Notes: generated from the letters alone by a model not told the origin. A stretch of DNA of 64,000 bases from Minisyncoccota bacterium (GCA_017992505.1 JAGOON010000001.1:2532-66531), one strand, 5' to 3'; positions 19,831 through 27,197 are shown, numbered from the stretch's first letter. Program-made: numbers and translations.

Positions 19831-21357
19831 CTACGCAGCCATTGTCTCGTCATGTTGCAATAATGTTTCAAGTTCGGCACGAATGAAGAGCTCACCAAAT
19901 GTTATCGTCGGATGAGCATGGGTGATGTCTATCATTGAATTCAGTGAATCAATCCAATCAAGATAAACTTCATACTTAATATCGCGCTCTTGCAGTTTTG
20001 CTCTAACAACATCACGTGACTGACTATCAAAGTCGACCACTTCTTTTACAGTCATACTTCGGAGAAAATCATAGAAGGCGCTTTTGTATGCAAAACCAAA
20101 GGCAGAGTCAAATTTTGATGGCGCTTCGATTCCCTGAATCTCACGTCGCACCATTGCCTCAAACTGCGCTACCGATGGAAAGTTGTATGCAACGAACTTT
20201 CCATAACGAGGGATTGCCAAGACTTTTTCGATTACCCCACCCCATTCGCCCTTATAAGCTCTTTCAACGCGCTCGATTGAGGGTTTGGTTGGTGAATTAT
20301 GAATTGCCTTCGGTCGAGGCGGGTTGCTTGCTATGAGCTCTGGCTTTTTGACGAGTGTAATTGGAACAATTTTCTCTTCAGTTTCTGCTTCCTTTGCAAC
20401 TTCAATAGCACCAGTTGGTTGTCTTTTTATATCAATGTTAACGAGCGGAATTTCTTCGTCCTTTTCAAAGAAACCCCCAAGACCCTTATCGAGCTGAATG
20501 AGATTATCTGATATTTCATCTACTGCATCTTCAAAATGCTCGGACGTTAGTTCAGTGACTTTATCATCCCTATCGAGATACTCCCTGATACTTTTAAAAG
20601 TCGTTCGCGCACGGTCAGTGGTGATGACGAGTTGTTTGTAGTAGTGTTGCCCTACATTCAAAACAGCATCCGGAGATACTACCTCGTTAATTTCTTGGTA
20701 CTTTGCGAGAAGTGCTTCTGCTTGCTCAATGAGCATTTCAGTTTTTTCCTCAAGTGTATTCAATTTACTTTTCTCAACAGTGGCACTCTCATCAACAACC
20801 AACTCCTTATCAGGCTCAACTTGAGGACCGGCAACTATTTCTTCAATTTCTTTTATAACAATCTCTTCTTCCGCAACCATTACTTGTTCCACTTCTGGTT
20901 TTACAAAGTCTTGGGTCATACTGTCTTCAGGAACCAACTCAACGGGGACTGATTCGGAGACAGTTTTTATCGGTAAGGTGTCGACCACAATCGGTGTGAC
21001 TTCTGGCATTACCACCACCTCATTTTCTACGACCGCCTCAATGGATTCAATACCATCAAGAATATCAATGAGCTCGTTGTAATGGGTTTGAATTTCGTTC
21101 GCAAGCGTTTCATCTACATCACCCCCTTCATCTTTAAGTAAAAAGGCAGTATTGAGTTTTTCTTTCAGCGTCTCGTAGAGATGAGACACATTTTCTAATT
21201 GGTTGTGTGATGACTCACCCGAGTGAGCCTTGATGTACTCTATGAGTTCAGTATACGCATCTTCCGTGTGGCGCGAAAAAGCCTGTAGGCCTTCCCTAGT
21301 ATTGATATCAATATCTTCTTGCACCTCTTCGGCGGTGGTCATTCGTTCCATGCTCAT
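19831..21357 (-). CDS. Hypothetical highly acidic (Glu/Asp/Val-rich) protein, start overlapping the upstream ATPase stop
   Basis: 508 aa. Its ATG overlaps the stop of the upstream ATPase gene (ATGA). The acidic coiled N-terminal two-thirds are followed by a conserved-looking C-terminal domain (EWGGVIEKVLAIPRYGKFVAYNFPS...). Confidence 0.5.
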   Translation of the reverse strand: MSMERMTTAEEVQEDIDINTREGLQAFSRHTEDAYTELIEYIKAHSGESSHNQLENVSHLYETLKEKLNTAFLLKDEGGDVDETLANEIQTHYNELIDILDGIESIEAVVENEVVVMPEVTPIVVDTLPIKTVSESVPVELVPEDSMTQDFVKPEVEQVMVAEEEIVIKEIEEIVAGPQVEPDKELVVDESATVEKSKLNTLEEKTEMLIEQAEALLAKYQEINEVVSPDAVLNVGQHYYKQLVITTDRARTTFKSIREYLDRDDKVTELTSEHFEDAVDEISDNLIQLDKGLGGFFEKDEEIPLVNIDIKRQPTGAIEVAKEAETEEKIVPITLVKKPELIASNPPRPKAIHNSPTKPSIERVERAYKGEWGGVIEKVLAIPRYGKFVAYNFPSVAQFEAMVRREIQGIEAPSKFDSAFGFAYKSAFYDFLRSMTVKEVVDFDSQSRDVVRAKLQERDIKYEVYLDWIDSLNSMIDITHAHPTITFGELFIRAELETLLQHDETMAA

Positions 21358-24188
21358 ATCATATCAGGCATTGCCGAGATTGGTGGCGGTGGCGGTGGAA
21401 CGGGCTTTTGGTACCGTACACGTATTTCCTCTTCGATTTCGGCTCGTGCTCGCCCATAGCGAGCGTAACTTTGTTCAATCAACATTGCTACTCGTTCTGG
21501 ATTTGATGCTTGTGGCGGTAATGTTGAGAGACTAAATGGCGGTGTTGGCGTACCGTTGGCCAAAATGCGCATGTACGCACTGCGATTTGGAACATTCATA
21601 AGATCGCTTGCACTAAAGGTTGGTGCGTATTGTTGCTCCAAGAACTGCGCATCCTCAGGGCCCACCCTGAAAGCTGCAAGTGAGCCGACATTCCCGAAAA
21701 CTGCGTCTTTTATGTCTGGTTGAAGCTGAGCGATAAATTGGTGCGCCATAGTGAGTCCAAGTTTGTATTTACGAGCTTCTGAAAGAATCGCCGAGATAGA
21801 ATCCGTAGAAATATTCTGAAATTCGTCCATATGAAGGTAGAATGGTGGATATTTTTTGAGGGGGTCATCAACGCGCGAAAGCGCAGCCATGAGGAGTTTC
21901 CCTACAAAAATCATACCGATAAGATTGGCATTAATTTCACCAATACGACCTTTGGCAAGATTTACCAGCAAAATCTTTCGCTCATCCATAAGAAGGCGGA
22001 AATTGAAAGCGCTACGCTGCTGTCCGATAATTGGTCGCATATAGTCATTTGCGGTGAAGACGTCAAATTTTGAAACGATGTATGGCACGATGTTTTCGAG
22101 CGCAGCTTCCCCACCTGCCTTTGTTGCAATCTCTCGCCAGAACTGGACGACGACTGGGTTCGTTGCTTTTTCGAGTTTCTGTCGTCGATAGCGAGCATCG
22201 ACCATTACTCTTGAAATATCCATGAGTGTATTCCCACTTTCTGGATCTTCCATTACAAGCATAGTGGCATTGCGGAAATACTGCTCAAACATTGGACCCA
22301 TAGATTCTGGATTGCCACCGTAGAGCTTTTTAAAAATAGAAAAGAGTTCGTTGACCACAAACGTCTTTTGTTCTGGCTTTGAGTAATCAAACTCGAGCAT
22401 ATTGAGGCCAATGACTCGATCAAGACGAGCGGGATCAAAATAGATGACGTCCTGCTCTCGGTGTGGCGGAACGGCAGCGAGGACATCTTCGATGTCTGTG
22501 CCATGCGGATCAATCATACACACACCGTCACCACGCATAATATCTTGAACAATCATGTTCTTCATGAGTGTTGTCTTACCTGTCCCTGTCTGACCAATGA
22601 TATAAAAATGACGCAGACGGTCTTCAGCGGTGATGAAGATTTTTCTTTCCGTACCACGGTGAGCATTAATGCCAAGAACAGTACCTTCGATAGGCATAGT
22701 GGTGGGCGCTGGAGCTGTTTGTGCGTATGACTGCTTAAACTGAGGGGCCGCAGCGCCAGAAGCAGCATTTTGAGGGAAATGCACCAATGTCGCTAACTCT
22801 CGAATTGAGAGTGGCACAATCCCTTTCACAGATAACTCACGAAATGAAAATGCTCGAAGCGCCCGCTTCTGCGCCAGACCAGTGAGACGATTGAACACAA
22901 AGGCATTTCCATCAACTGAATTAAAAGCTAAAAATGTCGATTCTATTTCTGACATTATCTGTTTAGCCCGCACATCTGTCTTTGCCGAGACCACCATACG
23001 GATGTTTGTTTCAACAATATCGGTAGTGATTTTCTTGCGGAAGAGTTCGATGGAACGTGTGTCAATTTCTTTTGGTGGTACCTGCACCTCTTCCTTTTTC
23101 TTATTGGTGAAAAAGAGGTCAGTGACAGTATTTTTAAATTCACCAATCATTGAACTCCGTGCAATTGCGTCCGCTGGTTTCGTGCCTTTTTCAACTTCTT
23201 TAATGATAGATTCGTATGTACTGCGATACTTGTCATGTGGGTACCGCACAATAAACTGAAGCGCCGCTCCTCCACCTTCACGTTCGATTTTTGAGAAGGC
23301 GTTTAAAATAACTGAGAATGGGTCAGCAGTGAATTCATCATGTGGTTTCAAAGGATAGATGGGGTGCTTTCTGAGACTTACTTCAGAAACGAGTGCCACT
23401 CCACCATCGGCAAAAATATTATAATCATGCGGTTGAATTGTCAGTACTGCGTGTGGAAAGAGTGAGAGTGTCTGCTTTTCAAAAAGCGTCGCAAATTCAT
23501 TTGGCACTGCAACGTAGTACACGATATCGTCACTATTATCAGCAACCGCTACCTCGATGACGAAGTGATTCCCCGCTTGAACTGAACCAATCGTTCGAAG
23601 ACCCGCCAACAGTTGCTCCATAACGCCGACCAGTTGCGCAAGTTGTTGTGCATTTCCATCTGGAGTACTTTGTGACGGAAGTATCACTTCAAAGAGCGTC
23701 ATATGAAGGATGTGCCATGGTGGCAAGCCTTCGCGCAAATCCGCTATCTGTGCACCAGAGCGAATTTGTTCAATAAGTTGACGATGTACTTCGTCGACAA
23801 TGTAGGTGTTATTTGTTTGTTCGAGTACAGTGAGAGCATTTTTGATTCCCTTCTCGTATGCCAACTGCATAATATCCTCAACAGGATTATGTGACACTAC
23901 CACCGCTTCAACGGAACGATTGAGTTCGTCACCACTAAGTTCATAGTTTTTATCGAGCACCATTTTGGGGGTAAAGCTCATGTAGTTTTTTATCTCCTGT
24001 TTACCAAGCGTTTCGATGTCGGTGCGGTCAATGGAGGGCGTACGATCCAGCATCTGACGCTCCCGCTGTGCGATACGCGCACGCAAAAACTCAAGCTCTT
24101 CTTGAGGAGAGGAAAACTGCCTTGGCACACCTTCAATCATGCGTTCATTGTACACGCAAAAGGCGCGCCAAAGGCGCGCCTTAACCAC
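21354..24188 (-). CDS. Soluble TraG/TraD/VirD4-family (TraG-D_C-like) P-loop ATPase with a ~480-aa N-terminal domain of unknown function. Alternative start Met17 at 24140
   Basis: Walker A GQTGTGKTT and Walker B LHMDEFQN, then RKYKLGLTMAHQFIAQLQ...GNVGSLAAFRVGPEDAQ matching the VirD4/TraD C-terminal signature. No N-terminal TM helices. Poly-Pro C-terminus. Confidence 0.55.
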   Translation of the reverse strand: MVKARLWRAFCVYNERMIEGVPRQFSSPQEELEFLRARIAQRERQMLDRTPSIDRTDIETLGKQEIKNYMSFTPKMVLDKNYELSGDELNRSVEAVVVSHNPVEDIMQLAYEKGIKNALTVLEQTNNTYIVDEVHRQLIEQIRSGAQIADLREGLPPWHILHMTLFEVILPSQSTPDGNAQQLAQLVGVMEQLLAGLRTIGSVQAGNHFVIEVAVADNSDDIVYYVAVPNEFATLFEKQTLSLFPHAVLTIQPHDYNIFADGGVALVSEVSLRKHPIYPLKPHDEFTADPFSVILNAFSKIEREGGGAALQFIVRYPHDKYRSTYESIIKEVEKGTKPADAIARSSMIGEFKNTVTDLFFTNKKKEEVQVPPKEIDTRSIELFRKKITTDIVETNIRMVVSAKTDVRAKQIMSEIESTFLAFNSVDGNAFVFNRLTGLAQKRALRAFSFRELSVKGIVPLSIRELATLVHFPQNAASGAAAPQFKQSYAQTAPAPTTMPIEGTVLGINAHRGTERKIFITAEDRLRHFYIIGQTGTGKTTLMKNMIVQDIMRGDGVCMIDPHGTDIEDVLAAVPPHREQDVIYFDPARLDRVIGLNMLEFDYSKPEQKTFVVNELFSIFKKLYGGNPESMGPMFEQYFRNATMLVMEDPESGNTLMDISRVMVDARYRRQKLEKATNPVVVQFWREIATKAGGEAALENIVPYIVSKFDVFTANDYMRPIIGQQRSAFNFRLLMDERKILLVNLAKGRIGEINANLIGMIFVGKLLMAALSRVDDPLKKYPPFYLHMDEFQNISTDSISAILSEARKYKLGLTMAHQFIAQLQPDIKDAVFGNVGSLAAFRVGPEDAQFLEQQYAPTFSASDLMNVPNRSAYMRILANGTPTPPFSLSTLPPQASNPERVAMLIEQSYARYGRARAEIEEEIRVRYQKPVPPPPPPISAMPDMI
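24147..24152 (-). promoter_or_regulatory. -10 hexamer TACAAT 6 nt upstream of the Met17 ATG of the ATPase gene
   Basis: Minus strand reads GGCGCGCCttttgcgtgTACAATgaacgcATG. Confidence 0.4.
24160..24182. promoter_or_regulatory. Perfect GC palindrome GGCGCGCC-AAA-GGCGCGCC (candidate operator) abutting the ATPase-module promoter
   Basis: AAGGCGCGCCAAAGGCGCGCCTT. Each half is itself palindromic. It is located in the -35 region of the putative promoter. Confidence 0.45.
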
Positions 24189-24274: not shown

Positions 24275-25309
24275 TTATTTTTTGCTCAAGACTGCTCGTT
24301 TGTATACATCTAGGTGTTCGAGCGCCGTCCCGGTTCCTTTTACTACACAAAAGAGTGCTTGGTCGGCCACAACCGCCTTCACCCCCAAACGTCGGCGAAT
24401 GAGCTCTGGAAAATTACGGAGCTGAGACGTACCACCAGTCATGATAATACCCCCATCGATAATGTCTGCAGCAAGCTCTGGTGGAGTCTCTTGAAAAACA
24501 TCTCGTATTGCCTTTATCATTTCCTTCAATTCTTTTCCAATCGCACGTACAACTTCATTACTCTTGATTTCGGTTGTACGAGGCAAACCAGAAATCATGT
24601 CCCTTCCTTTAATTTCCATCACCAACTCTTCTTCAAGTGGAAGTGCTGAACCAACTTTAATTTTTATATCCTCAGCCGTCTTTTCACCAATCGCGAGATT
24701 TCGAGTCTTCTTCACATAGTCCACAATCGACATATCGATACGGTTGCCCGCGCACTTAACTGAGTTCGAGGCTACGATACCCCCAAGCGAAATTACTGCC
24801 ACATCGATAGTACCGCCACCGATATCAACAATCATATGTCCTTGCGCTTCATATATAGGTACACCTGCACCAATAGCAGCGAGAATTGGTTCTTTCACCA
24901 CAAACGCATTCTTGGCGCCCGCCCGCATGGCAGCTTCTACTACCGCCCGACGCTCAGTTGAAGTCACGCCCGCTGGCACCGACACCATCACATCTGGCCT
25001 AAAGAGGCTGTACTTACTCATGGATTTTTTGAGGAAGTATCGAAGCATCGCTTCAGTAACGCGATAATCAGCAATGACGCCGTCACGCATTGGACGATAG
25101 GCTCGAATACTATCGGGAGTACGTCCAATCATTTGCTTGGCTTCGGTTCCAACAGCAAGCACCTCGTTGTCCTCAGAAATAGCAACAACTGACGGCTCAT
25201 TAAGTACAATTCCTTGTCCTGGAATAAACACCAAAATACTGGTAGTACCAAGGTCGATGCCGATTTTAGGAGTTAAGCTACCAAACATGTTAGGCACATA
25301 TACTACCAC
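24275..25309 (-). CDS. Second MreB-family actin homologue (Mbl/MreBH-like paralogue)
   Basis: IGIDLGTTSILVFIPGQGIVLNEPSVVAI and VDIGGGTIDVAVISLGG. Length 344 aa. A distinct paralogue from the mreB at 13493-14566. Confidence 0.8.
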   Translation of the reverse strand: MVVYVPNMFGSLTPKIGIDLGTTSILVFIPGQGIVLNEPSVVAISEDNEVLAVGTEAKQMIGRTPDSIRAYRPMRDGVIADYRVTEAMLRYFLKKSMSKYSLFRPDVMVSVPAGVTSTERRAVVEAAMRAGAKNAFVVKEPILAAIGAGVPIYEAQGHMIVDIGGGTIDVAVISLGGIVASNSVKCAGNRIDMSIVDYVKKTRNLAIGEKTAEDIKIKVGSALPLEEELVMEIKGRDMISGLPRTTEIKSNEVVRAIGKELKEMIKAIRDVFQETPPELAADIIDGGIIMTGGTSQLRNFPELIRRRLGVKAVVADQALFCVVKGTGTALEHLDVYKRAVLSKK

Positions 25310-25339: not shown

Positions 25340-25357
25340 TATAGCATATCTGCTATA
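25340..25357. promoter_or_regulatory. Inverted repeat TATAGCA-tatc-TGCTATA upstream of the HTH-MurA gene (candidate autoregulatory operator overlapping a -10-like TATACT)
   Basis: 7-bp perfect arms sitting 12 nt upstream of the murA ATG. Confidence 0.4.
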
Positions 25358-25368
25358 CTCACCTTTGT

Positions 25369-26868
25369 ATGCAAGATATAGGAACCCGCATTGCGGACGT
25401 ACGAGAAACCCTCGGTCTTACTCAATCTGATTTAGCTAAAAAATTAAAAACTACCCAAAGTGCCATCGCTCGCATAGAGAGCGGAAAGCAAAATGTTAGT
25501 GCAGATATGCTTAAACGCATCGGCAAGGCGCTGGGGAAAAATCTCATCACCCTCTCCCCAGGTACGGTAAATGTTCAAGTAAACGGCGGAAAGAAGCTTT
25601 CCGGTACCATACAAACCAACACCTCTAAAAACGGTGCAGTAGGACTCCTTTGCGCTTCTCTTCTTAATAAAGGCACAACTACCCTTCATGGTATGCCACG
25701 TATCGAAGAGGTGCACCGTCTCATTGAAGTACTGCAAAGTATCGGCGTGAGGGTTGAGTGGATCAAAAACTCCGTTCGCATTACCCCTCCTGAGAAAATC
25801 AATCTTGCAAAAATTGATGTTGAAGCGGCCCGCCGTACTCGTAGTATCGTAATGTTCATCGGCCCCTTAATTCACCGTATGAACACCTTCGCACTTCCGC
25901 AGTCTGGCGGTTGTAAACTTGGTAGTCGAACAGTGCGACCGCACTTTTATGCACTCGAAGAATTCGGCGTTTATATCAATACCACCGACAGCGCCTATGA
26001 GGTGTCAGTAAAGCCCAAGCAACCTAAAGAAATTATCCTCTATGAATCAGGTGACACCGTGACCGAAAACGCACTCATGGCAGCGGCACTCTTTAAGGGC
26101 ACTACCACTATCAAGTATTGCTCAGCCAACTACATGGTGCAAGAAATGTGTGTATTTCTTCAGCATCTTGGTGTTCAGATTGAAGGAATTGGTACCACTA
26201 CACTCACTATCACGGGTTGTAAAGAAATCAAGCAGGATGTTGAGTACCACCTTGCGGAGGACCCAACCGATAGTATGTTTTTCTTGGCTACTGCAATTGT
26301 CACCAATTCTTCAATTACTATCACACGCTGTCCGATTGAGTTCCTTGAACTTGAGCTCCTCACACTCAAAAAGATGGGCTTCAAGTACACGCAGTCAAAG
26401 CCATACCTTGGTAAGAATGGTCAGGTGAAGTTGGTTGATATTGTAACCAAATCATCAAAGATGGTCGCAGTTTCCGAAAAAATCCACTCCCGTCCCTACC
26501 CTGGCATCAACGCCGATAACCTCCCTTTCTTTGCGGTCATCGCGACGCAAGTGAGCGGACAAACCCTTATTCACGACTGGATGTATGAAAAGCGAGCAAT
26601 TTACTTTACCGAACTTGATAAACTTGGTGGTGATACCGTCCTTGCTGACCCGCACCGTATCTACATTACTGGTCCAAGCAAGCTCCGCGCTAACGAACTC
26701 GTCTGTCCGCCCGCACTTCGTCCAGCGACTATTCTTTTGATTGCAATGCTCGGCGCCGAGGGGCGATCAATTCTTCGCAACATCTACAGCATTAATCGCG
26801 GCTACGAAAAGCTCGTCGAGCGACTTGAATCACTTGGCGCCAGCATCAGCTACCTTGACGAGTTCTAA
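25369..26868 (+). CDS. murA: UDP-N-acetylglucosamine 1-carboxyvinyltransferase MurA with an N-terminal XRE-type HTH domain
   Basis: The N-terminal ~65 aa are a Cro/C1-type HTH (LGLTQSDLAKKLKTTQSAIARIESGK). The rest is full MurA with the catalytic-Cys loop PQSGGCKLGSRTVRPH and C-terminal SINRGYEKLVERLESLGA. Confidence 0.8.
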   Translation: MQDIGTRIADVRETLGLTQSDLAKKLKTTQSAIARIESGKQNVSADMLKRIGKALGKNLITLSPGTVNVQVNGGKKLSGTIQTNTSKNGAVGLLCASLLNKGTTTLHGMPRIEEVHRLIEVLQSIGVRVEWIKNSVRITPPEKINLAKIDVEAARRTRSIVMFIGPLIHRMNTFALPQSGGCKLGSRTVRPHFYALEEFGVYINTTDSAYEVSVKPKQPKEIILYESGDTVTENALMAAALFKGTTTIKYCSANYMVQEMCVFLQHLGVQIEGIGTTTLTITGCKEIKQDVEYHLAEDPTDSMFFLATAIVTNSSITITRCPIEFLELELLTLKKMGFKYTQSKPYLGKNGQVKLVDIVTKSSKMVAVSEKIHSRPYPGINADNLPFFAVIATQVSGQTLIHDWMYEKRAIYFTELDKLGGDTVLADPHRIYITGPSKLRANELVCPPALRPATILLIAMLGAEGRSILRNIYSINRGYEKLVERLESLGASISYLDEF

Positions 26869-26924: not shown

Positions 26925-27197
26925 ATGAGCGCAAATAATAAACAACCCGTGACTATCCGGCTTAACCCAAAGCTGTACGAGCATCTCAAAACACTTGCCA
27001 AGGAAGGAGTCACTGTTTCTTACCTCATAAATCAGGCAGTTCAGGAGTTCCTAGATGGAAAAACAACAGAATCCGCAAAAGACAGGTCTGTTGTTGCAGA
27101 AGAAGTCGAGGCTGTGATTCCAGTGCTGAAGCTAATCGGAAAACCCATTCATGTCGATTTGTTTTTTGAATTAATCGAGACACAACAGGGTCGCTAG
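26925..27197 (+). CDS. Ribbon-helix-helix (CopG/Arc/MetJ-like) small DNA-binding protein
   Basis: PVTIRLNPKLYEHLKTLAKEGVTVSYLINQAVQEFL has the RHH beta-alpha-alpha pattern. Confidence 0.45.
   Translation: MSANNKQPVTIRLNPKLYEHLKTLAKEGVTVSYLINQAVQEFLDGKTTESAKDRSVVAEEVEAVIPVLKLIGKPIHVDLFFELIETQQGR

Follow-up and report, generated by a model that had tools for sequence, protein, structure and literature searches.

A helix-turn-helix/MurA fusion with a conserved operator-like palindrome in its promoter: a candidate autorepressing cell-wall enzyme

Introduction

Why would MurA, the enzyme of the first committed step of peptidoglycan-precursor synthesis, carry a DNA-binding domain, and what would that domain bind? 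The question is raised by a gene in a 64,000-nucleotide stretch of DNA from a Minisyncoccota bacterium (GCA_017992505.1 JAGOON010000001.1:2532-66531; we use the term window to refer to this whole stretch), which encodes an XRE-type helix-turn-helix (HTH) domain joined to MurA and is preceded by an exact inverted repeat. A preliminary description of the window had pointed out both features and had suggested that the repeat is an autoregulatory operator. Cell-wall homeostasis and the action of fosfomycin both hinge on the control of MurA. Having compared this locus with its orthologues, with distant relatives and with other operons that contain the same site, we consider it likely that the protein is a bifunctional, autorepressing MurA, whose fused HTH domain would bind the palindrome in its own promoter and repress murA.

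Results

A fusion conserved in both halves

Both domains named in the preliminary description are recovered by profile searches, in the Pfam architecture that it anticipated (HTH_3 and EPSP_synthase). Its Cro/C1-type HTH of about 65 residues corresponds to a domain at residues 4-60, in which HTH_3 (PF01381) aligns with residues 8-59 (E 1e-13; 55.4 bits for the isolated domain, against a cut-off of 23). The remainder, described as a complete MurA with the catalytic Cys loop, gives a full-length EPSP_synthase match (residues 71-486; profile positions 1-417 of 417; E 4e-45) and passes the NCBIfam MurA subfamily model NF006873 (residues 69-495; 321 bits, cut-off 297). The score for the stricter equivalog TIGR01072 is below its cut-off (319.6 versus 392.7), and the protein therefore represents a divergent MurA subfamily. 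The AlphaFold2 model (predicted local distance difference test score, pLDDT, 86.6) consists of a four-helix HTH at residues 4-55 and the two-domain inside-out alpha/beta barrel of MurA, and it superposes on solved MurA structures in Foldseek with E values of 1e-36 to 1e-40 and target-normalised template-modelling (TM) scores of 0.87-0.93.

The catalytic loop reads SGGC182KLGSR187. Residues K87, R158, C182, R187, D383, R409 and R451 correspond to E. coli K22, R91, C115, R120, D305, R371 and R397 (mapped at the motif level, by alignment to C. jejuni MurA, 5ujs), and all seven catalytic or substrate-binding residues, kept in the window's protein, are invariant in the 81 sequences used for protein conservation statistics (80 orthologues plus the window). 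With all catalytic residues intact, the MurA body is predicted to be catalytically competent. There is no second murA within the 64-kb window.

The orthologue set consists of the best 80 (71-91% identity) of 278 relatives confirmed in a scan of one genome per species of GTDB, so that the fusion, whose spread the preliminary description had proposed to survey, occurs in at least 80 GTDB species; these 80 representatives are all metagenome-assembled genomes (MAGs) of the Patescibacteria type. The open reading frame (ORF) is 498-505 amino acids long in 80 of the 81 species, and mean column conservation is similar in the HTH (0.79) and MurA (0.84) parts. In a broader protein search, the best 120 clusters (90% clustering; 78-100% identity to the query) match it in length and contain both Pfam domains, bar one N-terminally truncated member; cluster members come from NCBI, JGI, ENA and Logan assemblies. 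The constancy of length and the conservation of both halves indicate that the fusion is real, old within the clade and selected in both halves.

The preliminary description had itself allowed that the N-terminal segment might result from a wrong start codon, the true start being an internal methionine after the HTH; equally, a frameshift might have joined a small XRE gene to murA. The frame is continuous, and there is no ATG, GTG or TTG around residues 60-70, at the junction LITLSPGTVNV; the MurA part therefore has no start of its own. The same architecture recurs in at least 120 clusters, in 80 independent genomes and in complete genomes of cultured Nonomuraea. The missing alternative start and the recurrence in independent assemblies exclude a wrong start or frameshift, and we regard the chance of any annotation or assembly artefact as negligible.

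Current databases label the fusion plainly as MurA or as an HTH protein; the MurA label is carried by a protein of 100% identity from a Candidatus Pacebacteria/Paceibacterota MAG. No combination of HTH and MurA was found among the solved structures matched, no transcription-factor domain on MurA was found in those structures or in literature searches, and a full-text literature search found no study describing an HTH-MurA fusion. Enzyme-repressors and XRE autorepressors as such are already known; an HTH-MurA with an operator in its own promoter seems to be undescribed so far.

The isolated HTH domain has DNA binders as its nearest solved structures, among them MBF1, a designed DNA binder (E 2e-7) and the 434 repressor (E 1e-5), with the recognition helix TTQSAIARIESGK compared with TTQQSIEQLENGK of the latter. 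The TTQSA segment of the recognition helix is at least 95% conserved in the 81 sequences. We infer from these resemblances that the HTH binds DNA. That it would do so as a dimer has comparative support, in a conserved palindrome whose half-sites are spaced by 10 bp and which co-varies with the HTH clade (below).

An inverted repeat over an extended -10 element

The palindrome and the overlapping TATACT hexamer are exactly as the preliminary description had given them (Table 1), except that the distance to the ATG is 11 nt rather than 12. The palindrome has a 6-4-6 core, ATAGCA-N4-TGCTAT, at 25341-25356; the hexamer (25354-25359) overlaps the right arm and ends 9 nt before the ATG. By itself, a 7+7 repeat within a spacer of about 60 nt is only mildly unlikely by chance, and we count it as significant because it is conserved across species. 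A search of the orthologous loci with the exact pattern ATAGC-N6-GCTAT finds the site before 79 of the 80 orthologous genes; the sequence of the remaining locus is cut off 16 nt upstream of the ATG. These 79 are the sole exact sites in 562,502 bases of orthologous loci, one per locus, and most begin 25-30 nt before the ATG. The operator idea has thus withstood the test of conservation upstream of orthologues, by which the preliminary description had said that it could fail. In the 64-kb window the exact ATAGCA-N4-TGCTAT occurs once, and in a regulon search of the window sites with up to two mismatches are at the chance level.

The site alignment (80 sequences, from the 79 loci and the window) has the consensus yATAGCR-tata-TGCTATAnT. 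Outside the search pattern, the T of the TG is present in 80/80 sequences, the A at hexamer position 4 in 73/80 and the final T in 75/80; the right arm is a predicted extended -10 element, which ends 6-11 nt before the ATG across the aligned loci. A two-hexamer promoter scan finds no -35/-10 pair before the fusion gene, as expected for an extended -10 promoter, for which such a scan is uninformative. There is also no Shine-Dalgarno sequence before the ATG. The absence of this sequence and the closeness of the -10 element to the ATG point to a transcript that is probably leaderless or nearly so, with a leader of about 0-4 nt.

It might be argued that the palindrome is only promoter architecture, made of extended -10 elements placed back to back for divergent genes, or that it encodes an RNA hairpin, the HTH then regulating other genes or being vestigial. 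The right arm is clearly an extended -10 element, and most loci have the site between divergent genes, as such a reading would have it. The left arm, however, is as invariant as the right arm, yet has no role in the murA promoter, and the mirrored -10 position, where the essential final T would fall, is correct (that is, A) in only 18 of the 80 sequences; the left arm is therefore not a mirrored -10 element for the divergent mreB gene. Moreover, loci whose upstream gene is co-directional also have an intact palindrome (L020, where it is perfect, and Nonomuraea), and an unfused relative (L085, below) retains the -10 element and not the left arm. Back-to-back divergent -10 elements are rejected on these asymmetric flank statistics and on the loci with a co-directional upstream gene. 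As for a hairpin, the arms have no compensatory changes and the 4-nt spacer is variable across the 80 sequences. Invariant arms without covariation, around a variable spacer, are the mark of a DNA site recognised by protein rather than of an RNA stem, and the hairpin is rejected on this ground. A vestigial HTH is at odds with the strong purifying selection on the domain. With the linkage of the same site to XRE genes in unrelated operons, described below, we judge this group of explanations to be unlikely, and prefer to regard the palindrome as an operator of the fused HTH.

Co-variation of site and helix in distant relatives

Among 1.84 billion representative proteins searched, fused relatives at full length reach down to 31% identity, and close unfused MurA proteins are also present. 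Fused relatives at 34-52% identity, from two phyla, are preceded by 6-4-6 palindromes with altered half-sites. The relative at 52% identity is that of cultured Nonomuraea (Actinomycetota), complete genomes included, which RefSeq names either "helix-turn-helix domain-containing protein" or MurA. Three Nonomuraea species, none with mreB nearby, have ATCTCA-tatg-TGAGAT 28-29 nt upstream of the start; TAtggT and a further 7 nt come after it. The identity of 52% between Nonomuraea and proteins of the candidate phyla radiation (CPR) suggests horizontal transfer between phyla, and the Nonomuraea protein is presumably an extra MurA paralogue. Its gene is flanked by a formyltransferase/enoyl-CoA-hydratase fusion gene and, downstream, by a phage-type integrase gene.

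A second clade (34-40% identity), which we call pseudo-MurA, has lost K22, C115, R120 and R397 but keeps the HTH and the fold. In four loci of this clade, ATATCA-N4-TGATAT or ATAACA-tata-TGCTATACT occupies the same place before the start, and again there is no mreB nearby. Three of the proteins (P0132, P0133 and P0140) are encoded between an unfused genuine murA (with murB or a Mur ligase gene) and ddl/Mur-ligase genes; a fourth (P0245) is preceded by murB and a relA/spoT-like gene. These proteins look like dedicated pseudo-enzyme regulators of peptidoglycan genes.

Across the three clades, half-site positions 3-4 (AG, CT or AT) change together with the recognition helix (TTQS versus TSQS) of the fused HTH. 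Conversely, the palindrome is absent upstream of all three unfused relatives compared. In one of these (L085, 60% identity), mreB is still divergent and the TGCTATACT -10 element is retained, but the left arm matches at only 3 of 6 positions.

The relation to mreB

The gene upstream of the fusion, mreB, is divergent in the window and in 78 of the 80 loci, directly adjacent in most of them and at variable distance. RodZ binds MreB through an XRE-like HTH, so that the fused HTH could be thought of as a RodZ-like module for protein-protein contact, anchoring MurA to MreB filaments, with the palindrome as an unrelated promoter sequence. The domain does not resemble RodZ closely, scoring 17.2 bits with the RodZ-type HTH_25 (PF13413), below the cut-off of 24.6, compared with 55 bits for HTH_3; MurA follows the HTH directly, with no membrane segment there. 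The palindrome, too, does not follow mreB: where mreB lies 400-1000 nt away or behind another gene, as it does in at least eight loci, the palindrome stays by murA, and the Nonomuraea and pseudo-MurA clades keep HTH and palindrome with no mreB in the vicinity. The HTH_25 score, the missing membrane segment and the lost linkage lead us to reject a RodZ-like tether, which we consider very unlikely. The putative operator belongs with the HTH gene and not with the neighbouring mreB.

The same site in toxin-antitoxin operons

We searched metagenome contigs for the exact 18-mer TATAGCATATATGCTATA and kept 120 loci. About a third of these adjoin HTH-MurA genes, including ones from CPR clades at 52-61% identity, in which the catalytic Cys and the helix TTQSxIARxE are kept. 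Of the 120 loci, 78 have an XRE-HTH ORF no more than 1 kb from the 18-mer, compared with 6 of 288 control windows taken from the same contigs (65% versus 2%). This linkage marks the palindrome as an XRE-type operator in unrelated genetic contexts. In at least 20 other loci, not adjoining HTH-MurA, a gene for a Gp49/HigB-like toxin begins 7-42 nt downstream (81 nt in one case), in most cases with an XRE antitoxin gene after it. The helix TTQS[AV][VI]AR[IM]E is carried by many antitoxins next to the 18-mer.

A common ancestry with a toxin-antitoxin promoter is probable for the HTH-operator module of MurA. An HTH and operator shared with antitoxins suggest common descent of the module, and not that HTH-MurA is itself an antitoxin. 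The fusion gene in the window is not in an operon with a cognate toxin; its neighbours are mreB, a ribbon-helix-helix (RHH) gene and a PriA-like gene.

The toxins beside the 18-mer are 109-128 amino acids long. Several of the promoters take the form TTGACA-n4-palindrome, in which the 18-mer fills the spacer (for example, L096, L133, L141, L148, L185 and L194). In two contigs the 18-mer is found twice, at 959-976 and 2013-2030 in L172 (1 kb apart) and at 498-515 and 531-548 in L174 (33 nt), neither contig showing an XRE ORF within 1 kb of the copies.

The free-standing XRE antitoxins beside the identical 18-mer raise another alternative, namely that a separately encoded XRE regulator of the same specificity (for example, a HigA-like antitoxin) binds the murA site and the fused HTH acts elsewhere. 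Such a regulator is unlikely because the site co-varies with the fused HTH. There is also a single exact site per locus, and no antitoxin gene is conserved beside murA; the window's RHH gene is absent from 80 of 80 orthologous loci and is probably a strain-specific insertion. We therefore think it quite improbable that the operator serves a separate regulator.

A proposed mechanism of autorepression

In the mechanism that we favour, the XRE-type HTH of the fusion would bind ATAGCA-N4-TGCTAT, presumably as a dimer, with two HTH domains on half-sites whose centres are 10 bp (one helical turn) apart. The site would span the spacer and the extended -10 element of the gene's near-leaderless promoter, and a protein bound there would block RNA polymerase. 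We infer that the fusion protein represses transcription at its own promoter in this way. The rate of murA transcription would then be set by how much MurA protein is present, and this would amount to direct negative autoregulation of the first committed step of peptidoglycan-precursor synthesis.

Several points weigh against this mechanism. The conservation of the right arm is partly owed to the -10 element; MurA enzymes are usually monomers; and the comparison with unfused relatives comprises only three of them. A clear 6-4-6 palindrome is not seen before two of the distant fused relatives, the operonic L086 and L087, whose start is uncertain. Finally, other antitoxins adjacent to the 18-mer have the helices TKQANISR and TTTSVVGR, and such differing helices at the same site imply that the code linking helix to site is loose.

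Two extensions are more speculative. The divergent mreB might be co-regulated; the geometry gives this no support, the distance from the palindrome to the mreB start varying from about 50 to 90 nt and mreB being 400-1000 nt off in at least eight loci. Also, the ligand state of the MurA body (UDP-N-acetylglucosamine, UDP-GlcNAc; phosphoenolpyruvate, PEP; UDP-N-acetylmuramic acid, UDP-MurNAc) might modulate DNA binding, making the protein a one-component feedback sensor. Ligand control is suggested, indirectly, by the non-catalytic sister proteins in mur clusters, together with the tight UDP-MurNAc/PEP complexes that MurA forms (PDB 3swd, 3su9). On a wider view, which we offer tentatively and would not call probable, the enolpyruvyl-transferase body is the ligand sensor of an unrecognised family of one-component regulators: in the Paceibacteria clade and in Nonomuraea the active enzyme would report its own occupancy by substrate or product (UDP-GlcNAc, PEP, UDP-MurNAc) to its promoter, in a sister clade a duplicated, catalytically dead copy would serve as a dedicated sensor-repressor of murA-murB and ddl/mur-ligase operons, and a mobile toxin-antitoxin promoter would have been the source of the HTH-operator module.

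Other features of the loci

The features discussed are collected in Table 1. The PriA-like gene downstream of the fusion is kept in 75 of the 80 orthologous loci. The 944-residue ATPase encoded next to mreB resembles the type IV secretion coupling proteins that have been described in Patescibacteria.

A few orthologous loci have the palindrome farther upstream, 75-270 nt from the ATG: at -270 in L053, where there is no ORF of 30 or more amino acids between palindrome and ATG, at -148 in L055, and at about -131 in L018, L026 and L031. Unlike the near-leaderless majority, these loci would have a long leader or an insertion. In about half of L001-L080 (for example, L011, L013-L015, L017 and L024), a second conserved motif, cTTTTCCmCAA...ACAAAG, is found at a fixed distance, about 20-30 nt upstream of the palindrome. 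It is kept in L020 and L048, where mreB is not adjacent, and is absent from the window; another group among these loci has TTGTCAATGTTTATA in its place.

Table 1. Features of the window and of the distant loci (coordinates of the window, or of the locus where one is named)
Feature	Position	Strand	Remarks
HTH-MurA fusion gene	25369..26868	+	499 aa plus stop; Pfam and NCBIfam matches
XRE/Cro-C1 HTH domain	25378..25548	+	aa 4-60; recognition helix TTQSAIARIESG, aa 28-39
Linker LTLSPGTVN	25549..25575	+	aa 61-69, 9 aa; pLDDT <50 at aa 61-64
MurA (UDP-GlcNAc 1-carboxyvinyltransferase) domain	25576..26865	+	aa 70-499; Cys182 codon 25912-25914
Operator-like palindrome TATAGCA-tatc-TGCTATA	25340..25357	.	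arms 25340-25346 and 25351-25357, exact
Extended -10 TGcTATACT	25351..25359	+	overlaps right arm of palindrome
mreB	24275..25288	-	divergent neighbour, probable ATG 25288; MreB_Mbl E 3e-129
RHH_3/CopG-like gene	26925-27197	+	90 aa; between murA and PriA-like gene
HerA/DUF87, TrwB/TraG-D, T4SS-DNA_transf ATPase gene	21354-24188	-	944 aa, adjoins mreB
Pseudo-MurA loci flanked by mur genes	L082 2624-5503; L215 2558-5530; L216 95-5003		
Pseudo-MurA locus after murB and relA/spoT-like gene	L088 388-4467		
Nonomuraea loci	L081 4001-6605; L091 3001-5657; L093 3001-5677		

Discussion

If the proposed mechanism is correct, a transcriptional feedback loop is built into the first committed cell-wall enzyme. 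The fusion is conserved in hundreds of CPR species, whose regulatory repertoire is small, and the murA promoter and its site would be among the first confidently predicted promoter/operator pairs for Patescibacteria, with an extended -10 element and a leaderless start. The catalytically dead relatives inside mur clusters suggest a wider family of regulators, and the homologues in cultured Nonomuraea make the idea accessible to bench work.

Comparison with known systems

HTH-MurA combines an enzyme and a DNA-binding domain in one polypeptide, with an operator-like site at a promoter of the same pathway, as do the enzyme-repressors, or trigger enzymes, BirA, PutA and NadR; the shared logic would be that the enzyme feeds back directly on its transcription. 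BirA is the biotin ligase and bio repressor, and PutA is a proline dehydrogenase with an RHH domain. The types of enzyme and DNA-binding domain are different here (a MurA fold and an XRE HTH), and HTH-MurA seems to have just one target, a site on its own promoter, unlike BirA, PutA and NadR. Ligand control of DNA binding has been demonstrated for BirA and PutA, whereas for HTH-MurA it is a speculative proposal.

With the 434 repressor and HigA, HTH-MurA shares the HTH_3 domain and a palindrome that occupies the spacer between -35 and -10 and has its half-site centres 10 bp apart. Where those proteins have a C-terminal domain for dimerisation, cleavage or toxin binding, HTH-MurA has an enzyme of 430 residues. 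The closest likeness in the operator is to the HigB/Gp49-type toxin-antitoxin operons, which have the identical 18-mer and near-identical recognition helices; in contrast to HigA-type antitoxins, HTH-MurA has no toxin gene adjacent to it.

RodZ similarly has an XRE-like HTH in a cell-wall context and beside mreB, but it is defined by HTH_25 and a membrane segment; HTH-MurA falls below the HTH_25 cut-off, has no membrane segment and is accompanied by a conserved DNA palindrome. A review of RodZ is available (PMC9804626). Finally, HTH-MurA has the fold and catalytic residues of canonical MurA, and in both cases the first committed step needs to be kept in check. The known controls of canonical MurA are post-translational, namely ClpCP/ReoM-dependent proteolysis in Firmicutes and feedback inhibition by UDP-MurNAc, whereas the control proposed for HTH-MurA would be transcriptional.

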